Below are positions 42,136 to 46,232 of a stretch of 51,824 nucleotides of DNA, piece by piece (position 1 is the first letter of the stretch; the number at the start of each line of letters is the position of its first letter). The notes beneath the pieces are model-generated. The model did no database searches. It was not told the DNA's origin and saw only the letters and a program-made list of their open reading frames with translations. Origin of the DNA: Patescibacteria group bacterium (GTDB lineage Bacteria; Patescibacteriota; Minisyncoccia; Phycocordibacterales; JAACPR01); NCBI GenBank assembly GCA_022711495.1, contig JAKLEX010000001.1, forward strand, positions 502,882 through 554,705, given 5' to 3'. The position numbers were made by a program, and so were the translations under genes.

Positions 42136-42250
42136 CTTGTCCTGGCGACTAGCTACTCTCCCTTTTACAGTACCATCGCCGCTACGGTGCTTGACTGCCG
42201 TGTTCGGAATGAGAACGGGTATTTCCACCGCGCTAAATCACCAGAACAAG
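42136..42250 (-). rRNA. rrf: 5S rRNA
   Basis: CCCGTTCTCATTCCGAACACGGCAGTCAAG...GATGGTAC...GAGAGTAG motif; terminal stem CTTGTTCTGG / CCAGGACAAG. Confidence 0.93.
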
Positions 42251-42614
42251 ACACTGAATTTTATACAATCGGGAAATTGTATTTCCACGAAACAAATCTT
42301 AGAAAAGTCTGATTTCTAGATTTCCTAATGAGATCGATTAATTAGTACGCCTTGGCTGAACACATTACTGTGCTTACACCTAGCGCCTATCAACGTAGTA
42401 ATCTCCTACGGATCTCAAACGATTCCTAATCTTGGGGCTAGCTTCATGCTTAGATGCTTTCAGCATTTATCTAAACCCGACATAGCTACAGAGCAATGCT
42501 CTTGGCAGAACAGCTCTCACACCAGAGGTCGGTTCACCTCGGTCCTCTCGTACTAGAGGCAACCCCCCGCAAGAATCAACGCCTACAGCAGATAGAGAAC
42601 CAACCTGTCTCACG

Positions 42615-43046
42615 CATGCCAATCACCTGTTGCCAGATGCATCGGACTAGATCTTCGCTTTTCACAAAAAATTGCCAACTTCGTGAAAGGCAGCCGGTTA
42701 TTAGTCTCTACGGGTCTGTGATGATTTCAAATGAATATCACTCCCCTCGGAATTGTCTTCGGTTCATTTCGTAAATCTATAAATTATAGATAGCGAAACT
42801 TGCTAAAGATTTTCCCGATATTAACCGACTTTTTCTTTCTTTGTTTGTTTGAGCGCTTGCGCGCGTCACAAAGAAGACCGCCGTGAATATTGATTTTCTA
42901 CACATGTTTACTCAACATGTTTTAGACAAAAAGACCTAAACATAATAACACTTCTTCTACATTCGAATTCGATGTTCGTATTGGTTTGATAACTCGCCTC
43001 TAGGATTCAGATTGGTTCATGAGCCGAAAAAATTTTCCGCTCATGA
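42615..43046 (-). other. Group I intron at 23S position 2593 (432 nt, no homing endonuclease ORF)
   Basis: Exon ...CAGACCGU | intron ...GCAUG | CGUGAGAC. P AAUAUCGGGAA, Q AAUUCCGAGG, R GUAGAGACUA, S AAGAUCUAGUCC; P3 GUCGGUUA/UAACCGGC; IGS UUCACG-GCGGUCU gives the U.G splice pair and P10; GCAA-capped P9. Confidence 0.92.
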
Positions 43047-43709
43047 ACGGTCTGAACCCAGCTCACGTAACTTTTTAATTGGCGAACAGCCAAACCCTTG
43101 GGACCTTCTCCAGCCCCAGGATAAGTTGAGCCGACATCGAGGTGCCGAACACTACCGTCGATATGAACTCTTAGGTAGTACCAGCCTGTTATCCCCAGGG
43201 TAACTTTTATCCGTTAATCTCTGGCCGCGTCTAAAGCGTACCATCGGTTCACTATGTTCTGCTTTCGCACCTGCTCGTCATGCACGACTTGCAGTCAAGC
43301 CAGCTTGTGCCATTACACTATCGGCACGATTTCCATCCGCGCCTAGCTGACCTTAATAAACTCCTCCGTTACTCTTTAGGAGGATAGCGCCCCACCAAAA
43401 CTACCCACCAGACACTGTTCCGCGCCGTTTTTGCCGGCGAGGTTAGATTGTACATTTTTACAGAACGGTATTTCACTGACGACTCCACTTTTCCCAAAAG
43501 AAAAGCTTCAAAGTCTCCCGTCTATGCTACGCAGTAAAAACGTACAGCCAATGCCAAGTTGTAGTAAAGCTCCTGGGGTCTTTCTGTCTTGCTGCAGGAA
43601 GGCGGCATCTTCACCGCCATTGTATTTTCACCGAGCAAGTCCTCGAGACAGTTCCCCAGTCGTTACACCATTCGTGCGCGTCTGAACTTACCAGACAAGG
43701 AATTTCGCT

Positions 43710-43954
<245 letters not shown>

Positions 43955-44787
43955 CGGGGCTTATATCAGTCAGCACCAAACATTTTAGAAACGAATTTCT
44001 TCGCGCCCAAAATGTTTGGCACCGCCGATATTTGACCTTCCGGCATTGGTCAGGTGTCGCCCTCTATACATCATCTTACGACTTCGCAGAGAGCTGTGTT
44101 TTTGGTAAACAGTCGCCAGGGATTCTTTAGCTGCGGCCCCATAACTTAATACAGGGCAGGCCTTATCGCTAACTTACGGCCGCTTTTTTGCCGAGTTCCT
44201 TGAGGACCTCTCACTCGTTCGCCTTAGTCTTCTCGACCAAACTACCTGTGTCGGTTTACGGTACGGATTGTTTTAAATTAAGCTTAGAAGTTTTTCTGGG
44301 AAGCCTTTTTTATTCTGTCTCTCTTGGCGAACCGCAAGATTCTGATATCGAATCGGCCTGATGTCTTCCGGATTTTCCTAGAAGACAGCCTCTCGACTTC
44401 AACCCAAATCCAATAATGGGCAGAACATAATAGACTCCGTCACTCCATCGCATCTAAAACAAGTACTGGAATATTAACCAGTTATCCATCGGGTTCGGCT
44501 TTCGCCATCCCCTTAGGACCGACTAACCCTTCGCTGATTGTCATTGCAAAGGAACCCTTAGTTTTTCGGCGTGCGGGGTTTTCACCCGCATTGTGGTTAC
44601 TCGTGCCAACATTCTTACTTCATAACGCTCCACCATGGGTCACCCCTTTGGCTTCAACGCGGATATGAATACTCTCCTACCGCTCGCACTTTTCCGAAGA
44701 AAAATACAAGCCCTCAGCTTCGGTACTATACTTAGCCCCGATTATCTGCGGCGCGGAATCTCTTGACGAGTGAGCTGTTACGCTATC

Positions 44788-44819
<32 letters not shown>

Positions 44820-45393
44820 TCGTTGTATAAGAAATTCCACCTCCTTAAGTGCACTTAGTATAAATTTTGGGACCTTAGCTTGAGATCTGGACTGTTTTCC
44901 TTTTGACCGACGAACCTTAGCGCCCGTAGTCTTACTGCCAAGCTCTAACTTTGGGTATTCGGAGTTTGGTAGGCGAGATGAGATTTCTCCCTATTCTAAC
45001 CTTCCAGTGCTCTACCCCCCAAAGGAACACTTGACGCTATACCAAAATATATTTCGGAGAGAACCAGCTATTTCCAAGTTCGATTAGCTTTTCACTACGA
45101 CCCACAAGTCATCCGAGCGAGTTGAACAACACACCGGTTCGGGCCTCCTCTGATATTTCTATCAGATTCACCCTGCTCATGGGTAGATCACTTGGTTTCG
45201 GGTCTGATACGTTATACATTTGTTCGCGCTATTAACACTCGGTTTCCCTAAAGCTCCGTCCCATAGGACTTAGCTTGCAAAACGCATCAACTCGTTGGCT
45301 CATTCTTCAATAGGCACACCGTCGAGGTATTGCTACCTCTTCGATTCCTTGTAGACATATGGATTCAGGTCTATTTCACCGCCCTAATCGGGC

Positions 45394-45435
<42 letters not shown>

Positions 45436-46232
45436 TAAAAGAATATTTAGCCTTGCCGGTTAGTTCCGGCAGCTTCACCCGAGCTATTCGTGTCTCGAGA
45501 TACTCAAGAGCTGAAACAAAAGAGAGAATTTGCTTTCATCTACAGGACTATTACCTTTTGTAGTATTTCTTTCCAGAAATTTCGATTAACAAACTCCTTT
45601 GTAACTCTTCTCGTGCAAGCACGACGTTTCAGTCTTACAACCCTCATCCCCCACCATCTAATAAAAGATAGCTTTTTGGGATAAGTTTGGGCTTCTTCCT
45701 TTTCGCTCGCCGCTACTAAGGAAATATTTCTCTACTAATGCAGAGATTGTTTTCTTTTCCTCTAGGTACTGAGATGTTTCACTTCCCTAGGTTTGCTCCT
45801 TCTGGTCAAGCCAGAAGGTGCCGCACAAAATGCGGCGGGTTTCCCCATTCGGACATCTTCGGATAAAAAGTTGCTATACACTTCCCCGAAGCTTATCGCA
45901 GCTATGCTACGTCCTTCATCGCTTCTTTTAGCCAAGGCATCCACCATACGCCCTTAGATTCCCATTAGGAAATCTAAAAACCACTTAACTTTTCTACTGT
46001 TTGTTTGTGAAAATACAATTTCCTGATTGTATTTACAATTATTCAATTTTCAAATAACAGTCGTCCCGATTTTTCTCATTCCGTACCCAGCATCCCAAAC
46101 TAGTCGCCTAATTCGGGACTCTCGATAAAGAAAGACCGCTTCGTCTGAAGCGGCCAGTTCTCGCGTACGCGTTAAAATCACGTTCAGACTGGCCGTTTCA
46201 AACTTAGATTTTCCCTCATATTTGTAGGAACG

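Follow-up and report, generated by a model that had tools for sequence, protein, structure and literature searches.

In a tiny, uncultured Patescibacteria group bacterium, the first 44 nucleotides (nt) of a group I intron in the 23S rRNA gene fold back on the last 13 bases of the upstream rRNA exon. Comparative sequence evidence indicates that the helix formed in this way is a selected part of the intron, conserved and co-varying with the rRNA in about 95 related introns. The intron lies on the minus strand of what we call the window, the whole 51,824-nt stretch of DNA analyzed here (positions 502,882 to 554,705 of contig JAKLEX010000001.1, GenBank assembly GCA_022711495.1). An original prediction for this DNA described a complete intron at 23S position 2593 (L2593) whose P1 loop carries a decoy helix; this decoy would mask the 5' splice site and might act as a timer or switch for splicing, and therefore for maturation of the 50S subunit. 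All that this prediction says of the sequence itself is correct, and the masking helix is real, but the comparative data lean away from a decoy or timer and toward a slot for a very short P1, given a weak lid, an opening cost of about 4 kcal/mol, and the exon loop of a second intron family at position 1931. A reading in which the module is a clamp, or pre-organizer, that would hold and present the 5' exon fits these data better than a strong trap does, and we would give it an even chance of being right.

Insertion sites were numbered by aligning the joined exon flanks, ungapped, to the annotated Escherichia coli 23S rRNA. This alignment places the intron between U2593 and C2594, with U2593 as the last base of the 5' exon, and identifies exon GGGUUCAGA as 23S positions 2581 to 2589. 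The intron contributes three segments to the module (Table 1): a hairpin that begins at its first base and stacks on the U2593 pair, a short strand that we call the lid, and an anti-exon strand. Together with the exon they make two helices, a 9-bp helix that we name P0 (GGGUUCAGA/UCUGAAUCC) and a 10-bp splice-site helix in which G2592, U2593, and intron nt 1 to 8 pair with nt 23 to 32 (GU and UCAUGAGC, opposite GCUCAUGAAC); a CC/CAA internal loop divides them. These two helices are the minimum-energy fold, at −34.8 kcal/mol (shuffle mean, −15.9; z, −7.45; 0 of 200 shuffles as stable), and the exon/intron helix is still present when the whole intron is folded. Folded locally, 76 of 91 relatives likewise take the module helix as their minimum-energy structure. 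Both helices had been put forward in the original prediction and hold up in the fold, as do the burial of the splice-site U in a U-A pair (A31-U2593) and the capture of exon 2581 to 2589 in the anti-exon pairing. It had also been argued that the helix would form before P1 can; it does precede P1 in transcription, and the two exclude each other at G2592/U2593, with no conflict outside the 4-nt slot.

A DNA search of 60 related genomes returned five homologous L2593 introns. Compensatory changes mark the hairpin in the three closest relatives, where AUGAGC/GCUCAU becomes AUAAGC/GCUUAU, ACGAGC/GCUCGU, and AUGAGU/ACUCAU, and the string ...UGAAYCAAUCUGAAYC is retained in all six introns, the five homologues and the present one. 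Two broader scans enlarged the set. Scan A covered one genome per species with the 3' junction CATG/CGTGAGACAG as its pattern and is blind to the intron 5' end. Scan B covered metagenomes with the exon, N20-50, and TYTRAAYC, a pattern that admitted mismatched exon/intron combinations; its set is selected on a degenerate anti-exon pattern, and the set unselected on the anti-exon strand comprises 23 introns. Taken together, the scans hold 112 distinct L2593 introns, 95 of which have a hairpin from nt 1, a lid of 4 to 5 nt, and a 9-nt anti-exon strand, and locus L146 is one further carrier. Complementarity to the exon is the rule among these homologues, and its lack was one part of the outcome on which the original prediction was to be given up. 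The hosts of the module named so far are Saccharibacteria, Nomurabacteria, Parcubacteria, Jorgensenbacteria, Kaiserbacteria, and Minisyncoccia, all of them lineages of the Candidate Phyla Radiation (CPR). Acidimicrobiia, Omnitrophica, and a small number of CPR lineages host the remaining L2593 introns, in which an ordinary guide lies 10 to 30 nt from the splice site. Even sampling across the phylum gave at least 6 of 401 genomes with the module in its compact form, a lower bound in that rRNA genes often go unassembled.

Evidence for selection comes from an anchored alignment of 92 introns that takes in exon 2581 to 2593, intron nt 1 to 10, a filler, the lid with the 10 nt that precede it, and the anti-exon strand. 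Standard pairs occupy 90.2% of its cells, compared with 76.3% in shuffles, and its covariation score is 0.44, compared with 0.17; none of 500 shuffles attains either the pairing or the score. When the register is slid, pairing falls to 49% or less. The splice-site hairpin has double-sided changes in 10 of its 12 pairs. On the exon side, position 2586 and its anti-exon partner are C-G in 84 introns and U-A in 8, position 2588 and its partner are G-C in 59, A-U in 29, and G.U in 4, and neither position is unpaired in any intron. Mismatched exon/intron combinations number zero, though the search pattern admitted them, and a double exon variant, GGGUUUAAA, which combines both changes in one genome, is matched by UUUUAAACC. 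The 23 introns unselected on the anti-exon strand yield 88.5% pairing versus 75.7% in shuffles and a score of 0.414 versus 0.156, again with 0 of 500 shuffles reaching these values. Since G.U pairs are frequent, the pairing belongs to the RNA sense strand. Covariation of the helix among CPR L2593 introns had been named in advance as a test of the original prediction, and the result is strongly positive both in the 92-intron set and in the 23 unselected introns.

The guide that forms P1 lies far downstream of this module. Its first G is intron nt 166, in agreement with an earlier placement of the internal guide sequence about 165 nt from the 5' splice site, and in the relatives the guide is found 62 to 303 nt downstream of that site. 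The core of the guide, GCGG, recurs in 87 of 91 relatives. Guide positions 5 to 7 are not kept as pairs across the same relatives: position 5 is U in 48 introns and C in 40, and position 6 does not track exon 2588, being U in only 4 of the 28 hosts with A2588. P1 measures 4 bp in 41 of the 91 and 6 bp in 31. P10 measures 5 bp in 58 and 4 to 6 bp in 89, with UCACG conserved. Because the guide beyond GCGG does not track the exon, we take the selected P1 to be the 4 bp CCGU/GCGG (2590 to 2593), a helix that abuts P0 without any overlap of 2581 to 2589. A longer selected P1, of 6 to 7 bp, was considered and found unsupported on the same grounds. We likewise rejected the closed helix as the true P1, for the splice-site U stands opposite A in 84 of 92 introns and the downstream GCGG always provides a U.G pair, with the P10 strand directly before it.

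The lid that covers the slot in the closed helix is constant in its contacts and modest in its strength. It pairs with U2593 in all 92 introns (through A in 84 and G in 8) and with G2592 in all 92 (through C in 88 and U in 4), and it leaves C2591 unpaired in 79. When GCGG is placed in the lid slot, its stability exceeds that of the lid in 79 of 91 introns, matches it in 11, and falls short in 1, with a median difference of −6.2 kcal/mol and one of −11.2 kcal/mol in the present intron, in a crude comparison that ignores nicks and loop entropy. Opening 2590 to 2593 with P0 and the hairpin kept costs a median of 8.5 kcal/mol and, in this intron, 4.2 kcal/mol. In loci L140 and L175 the lid is itself GCGG, identical to the guide core, and the closed helix contains a U2593.G wobble beside a 9-nt anti-exon strand. 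These two loci may serve as natural variants for asking which helix is used.

The same 23S gene contains an intron of like design at position 1931, located at about 43931..43722 on the minus strand (within window 43722-43965). Its 5' hairpin is closed by U1931-A and is followed by AGGACUGGGACGGUUAUAG, which is complementary to exon 1914 to 1927. Twelve more CPR L1931 introns, those lying in the loci fetched for L2593, were all read individually and are built alike (loci L178, L226, L194, L063, L115, L202, L205, L014, L143, L136, L130, and L248). The layout appears in an automated fold for 10 of the 12; in L194 and L115 the anti-exon strand has a 1-nt bulge, was missed by the ungapped anchor search, and was read by eye. 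In this family P0 extends as far as exon position −5, an internal loop holds exon AGG (−4 to −2), and the splice-site U starts the hairpin. A 4-nt RCCU guide is situated 54 to 127 nt downstream in 10 of the 12 introns and was not found in L014 or L143. Exon variants at 1920 to 1922 are compensated in the intron (..CGAUCC/GGAUUG, ..AAUUGUCC/GGACAGUUG, and ..AAUCGUCC/GGACGAUU). Actinobacterial L1931 introns are without the module.

Other 23S insertions in the fetched loci were read by eye, a duplex-energy scan of all of them being too noisy to score. By this reading, inserts at 1917, 1951, 2500, and 2530 have ordinary nearby guides. Near E. coli positions 2256 to 2260, loci L173 and L014 have inserts of 250 to 290 nt that open with a hairpin followed by GUGGCGCCUC, complementary to the upstream exon GGGGCGCU; these inserts may mark a third site with the clamp layout.

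How would a clamp of this kind work? Once transcribed, it would zip at once onto the last 13 exon bases. In this closed state, whose pairing is supported by sequence and covariation, P0, the lid over CCGU, and the hairpin would make up one long helix with the splice-site U in a U-A pair. The guide GCGG, when it in turn has been transcribed, would displace the weaker lid. In the open state that we infer, the 4-bp P1 (CCGU/GCGG, with its U.G pair) would be stacked between P0 and the hairpin as a three-strand continuous helix, the hairpin would take the place of a P1 extension, and the adjacent UCACG would remain free for P10. An intron so arranged might keep the strand of the peptidyl-transferase center (PTC) from rRNA folding, retain the 5' exon after the first step, and, through flanking stacking, assist a guide too short to be efficient by itself. 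The splice site would be masked only transiently, as a by-product that could add delay. A clamp is a better fit than a trap because the slot comprises exactly the four guide-bound bases in both intron families, and because the lid is weak and the guide lacks covariation beyond 4 bp.

Several observations weigh against the clamp. The constant lid pairing of G2592 and U2593 is explained by selection for masking no less well than by a passive placeholder. Lids that read ACGG (10 introns) or GCGG (2 introns) are as strong as the guide, with a ΔΔG of about 0. The clamp would not be strictly required for a short P1, because the L2593 introns of L027, L087, and L127 have a 4-bp P1 and are without the full clamp. 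The energies that favor opening come from the crude lid-versus-guide comparison described above, and the proposed open state is a pseudoknot-like three-strand stack that nearest-neighbor folding cannot score properly. The intron-core tree is poorly resolved as well: the best tree has 18 changes of state at exon 2588, with only one independent pair on supported branches. Flanking exon markers, moreover, can be co-converted with the intron during homing. For these two reasons, the covariation events may not all be independent.

Foremost among the alternatives is the inhibitory decoy or timer, a closed helix that serves to conceal the 5' splice site together with the PTC strand and would delay or gate splicing, and with it 50S maturation, until a later folding or assembly event opened the helix. 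We consider this reading unlikely though still alive, because U2593 and G2592 are lid-paired in every one of the 92 introns and because ACGG and GCGG lids match the guide in strength. It accommodates well a helix that forms first and is the local minimum-energy fold, a hairpin that always starts at nt 1 and thereby yields a continuous duplex across the scissile phosphate, and the lineages with an ACGG lid, whose helix is perfect and whose opening costs up to 14.7 kcal/mol. It accommodates poorly a lid outmatched by the guide in 79 of 91 introns, the conserved C2591 mismatch, a slot that opens in the present intron for only about 4 kcal/mol, and an L1931 family with three of the four P1 exon bases already unpaired. 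No trigger, whether an aptamer or a protein site, is evident either, with no Rfam aptamer in the intron and a spacer that goes down to 16 to 22 nt. A pure inhibitor, furthermore, has no need of a 9-bp exon helix outside P1, and this is the most strictly co-varying part of the module.

The other alternatives explain less of the module. Once the intron is excised, its free anti-exon strand, GCGG, and UCACG would together provide about 18 to 20 nt of complementarity to intron-less 23S rRNA at 2581 to 2599, and this long, exon-matched complementarity could guide reverse splicing and so explain scattered copies without an open reading frame (ORF). Only 11 of the 95 clamp introns are long enough for an endonuclease gene, and their occurrence is scattered, with 6 carriers among the 401 genomes sampled from the phylum, as such a reading expects. 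It is nevertheless improbable: it leaves the nt-1 hairpin and the lid without a role, traces of reverse transcriptase or of RNA-mediated integration were neither sought nor seen, and ordinary DNA homing with gene loss explains the distribution, because relatives that bear a LAGLIDADG gene keep the same clamp. We rate still lower the idea that RNase III or an assembly factor recognizes the 22- to 25-bp duplex, whether to destroy unspliced precursors or, say, to recruit a chaperone. The length and regularity of the duplex do fall, as a matter of general knowledge, in the range of double-strand-specific RNases, but the hairpin sequence is free to vary, its loop can exceed 100 nt, and cleavage there would sever the rRNA. 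Replication slippage could produce an inverted copy of a junction, and the helix might in principle be a relic of such an inverted repeat at insertion or a chance complementarity. We attach almost no probability to this last reading, which the covariation in the 92-intron and 23-intron sets already contradicts: the module is conserved where other peripheral intron sequence is unalignable, 10 of 12 hairpin pairs and two exon positions are compensated, no shuffle attains the score, and G.U pairs make the pairing strand specific.

The rest of the long loop L1 varies in length. The spacer between the anti-exon strand and the P10 strand ranges in the relatives from 16 to about 190 nt, the shortest forms having 16 to 22 nt and reading (C)GAGGUAAAAGACAUCAU-UCACG-GCGG. 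In the present intron its extra 115 nt include a genus-level hairpin, UCUA..ACAUGUU-GAGUA-AACAUGU..UAGA (42897-42926), that shows covariation among four relatives. The spacer motifs (C)GAGG and AAGACAUCAU, which precede UCACG, are kept in minimal introns; a pairing partner for them was sought and not found. No sensor domain is conserved across the relatives' spacers, and no large one is needed, because the spacer can shrink so far. We therefore rejected an aptamer or sensor in L1, a candidate for which a search of the intron against Rfam returned no aptamer family at E values up to 10.

That this intron lacks an endonuclease ORF, as had been claimed, was borne out: its longest frames encode 42 and 52 amino acids, and a tblastn search with the LAGLIDADG protein of a relative gave no similarity (E = 0.26). 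A reading of the long L1 as a decayed endonuclease site did not survive comparison and was rejected, since in ten long relatives (687 to 742 nt) that share the 5' module, the ORF with a LAGLIDADG motif is located in P6. The sole copy scanned against Pfam, that of L077, matches LAGLIDADG_1 (1.8e-10). In locus L019, a 1,034-nt Saccharibacteria L2593 intron with the clamp has a tRNA-Leu(UAG), called by ARAGORN at 1882-1960, in its P6 insertion.

The module has partial likenesses in several known systems. In the Tetrahymena pre-rRNA, Woodson and Cech reportedly described in 1991 an element, P(-1), that pairs exon with exon owing to the rRNA sequence and is inhibitory. P(-1) resembles the module helix in that 5' exon bases by the splice site of an rRNA intron are drawn into a pairing that rivals P1; the partner here, however, is intron nt 31 to 44, which co-varies with the exon and pairs mostly outside the 4-bp P1. 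Lee and colleagues are said to have described in 2010 an allosteric group I ribozyme of Clostridioides difficile in which a riboswitch aptamer for c-di-GMP drives alternative 5' splice-site pairing. In both cases an alternative pairing at the 5' splice site would decide whether a productive P1 forms, but the C. difficile ribozyme is aptamer driven, and in the present family no aptamer was found and the spacer can be as short as 16 to 22 nt. Group II introns employ a second intron segment (exon-binding site 2, EBS2) that binds the 5' exon (at intron-binding site 2, IBS2) just upstream of the bases bound by the primary guide. They belong to another ribozyme class, and EBS2 neither covers the splice site nor is joined to a lid. 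Engineered trans-splicing group I ribozymes with extended guides combine a P1 extension, an internal loop, and an antisense duplex, and make better use of the splice site (PMC6155759, citing Kohler et al. 1999). These constructs share with the clamp the arrangement of helix, loop or slot, and helix beside a short P1, although the engineered arm pairs 3' of the splice site and in trans, and its natural counterpart works in cis on 5' exon bases that lie upstream of P1.

CPR insertions at 23S position 2593 with LAGLIDADG genes have been catalogued (Tsurumaki et al. 2024; PMC11270868), and cyanobacterial L2593 introns have been described with P7.1/P7.2 and a short P2 (PMC1995217). The intron studied here shares with known L2593 introns its site (the I-CreI site) and its ribozyme class, and its relatives share a single-motif LAGLIDADG_1 gene in a peripheral loop; that peripheral gene is not present in this copy. 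The subfamily differs from cyanobacterial and canonical L2593 introns in being without P7.1/P7.2, in a guide 62 to 303 nt away (canonically 10 to 30), and in its module of hairpin, lid, and anti-exon strand. This module is unmentioned in the texts of PMC11270868 and PMC1995217, and the full-text literature searched, a coverage that leaves subscription journals largely outside, holds no description of the helix. The intron is a further L2593 group I intron, and the clamp, as far as we have found, is a new form of group I architecture.

The intron itself is complete, with all the core elements that the original prediction had ascribed to it. Core helices P3 to P9, a P1 with a U.G wobble, P10, and the terminal G are all present, and P7 lies in the classical elements R (GUAGAGACUAAU) and S (AAGAUCUAGUCC), which we read directly. 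The Rfam model RF00028 (Intron_gpI) matches at 36.5 bits (E = 8.2e-8), under its gathering cutoff of 50 and seen only with the region scanned alone; model positions 1 to 253 align over window 42623-42933. Homologues of the same architecture exceed the cutoff (L198, 68.4 bits; L153, 56.3 bits). The intron, which has no endonuclease, looks functional, and its splicing is predicted. The start at 43059 given in the original prediction adds to the intron the 13 exon bases that pair with it. The 23S rRNA gene occupies window 42321..45970 on the minus strand, about 725 nt longer than the model, with the 5S gene after it. The 16S gene (window 31758-33253) is about 9 kb downstream of the 23S-5S pair (42140-45970) on the same strand, and the rRNA genes therefore depart from the usual 16S-23S-5S order.

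Table 1. Features of the L2593 intron and its flanking exons, in window coordinates.
Feature	Position	Strand	Basis and remarks
Group I intron L2593, 432 nt, ORF-less	43046..42615	minus	Pairing, Rfam core, homologues over the RF00028 cutoff
5' exon strand G2581-U2593, GGGUUCAGACCGU	43047..43059	minus	2581-2589 pair with the anti-exon strand; 2590-2593 (CCGU) are the P1 exon strand, the "slot"
5' hairpin, nt 1-30, UCAUGAGC-G-GAAAAUUUUUUC-G-GCUCAUGA	43017..43046	minus	Fold; begins at first intron base, stacks on the U2593 pair
Lid ACCAA, nt 31-35	43012..43016	minus	A31-U2593 and C32-G2592 pairs; CAA opposite C2590/C2591 as internal loop
Anti-exon strand UCUGAAUCC, nt 36-44	43003..43011	minus	Pairs with exon 2589-2581 (helix P0)
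Rest of L1, nt 45-159	42888..43002	minus	Holds the genus-level conserved hairpin 42897-42926
P10 strand UUCACG, nt 160-165	42882..42887	minus	Pairs with 3' exon CGUGAG; read from sequence
Internal guide GCGGUCU, nt 166-172	42875..42881	minus	Pairs with exon AGACCGU; G166.U2593 wobble; invariant core GCGG
P2/P2.1 (UCUUUGU ... GCGC-GCAA-GCGC ... ACAAAGA)	42838..42874	minus	Sequence reading and whole-intron fold
P3 5' strand 42823-42829; P4-P5-P6 domain 42712-42819	42712..42829	minus	Rfam alignment; short P6, no ORF
P7 5' strand AGACUA 42702-42707; P3 3' strand AACCGGC 42693-42699	within 42645..42707	minus	Rfam alignment
P8 42658-42689; P7 3' strand UAGUC 42645-42649	within 42645..42707	minus	Rfam alignment
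P9 hairpin CAUCUG-GCAA-CAGGUG 42624-42639; terminal omega G 42615	42615..42639	minus	Sequence and Rfam alignment
3' exon CGUGAG (C2594-G2599)	42609..42614	minus	P10 partner; sequence, E. coli numbering

In the textbook view, a single short guide helix, P1, is what lets group I introns recognize the 5' splice site. The large natural subfamily described here adds to this a second, intron-encoded exon-binding strand, one that co-evolves with the rRNA and covers the splice site. We propose, as a broader and more tentative reading that we hold at somewhat less than even chances, that CPR bacteria evolved a modular clamp for rRNA group I introns at no fewer than two sites (2593 and 1931, perhaps with another at about 2256), that a 4-nt guide can work there when its P1 is sandwiched between helices, and that the intron, rather than chaperones, times the release of the PTC and helix 69 (H69) strands into ribosome assembly. 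CPR bacteria are reported to make do with roughly half as many ribosome biogenesis factors as is usual (PMC12641178). Were the clamp to aid splicing, it would account for the presence of introns with so short a P1, of 4 bp, in the PTC and H69, the ribosome's most structured and conserved regions, in these factor-poor bacteria; it would also parallel the antisense arms engineered onto trans-splicing ribozymes, for which it could serve as a compact natural blueprint. If it instead delays splicing, it would be a self-contained timing device in ribosome assembly. Should the clamp reading prove true, these introns would possess a previously undescribed group I exon-recognition element, and with it a built-in link between splicing and 50S maturation.

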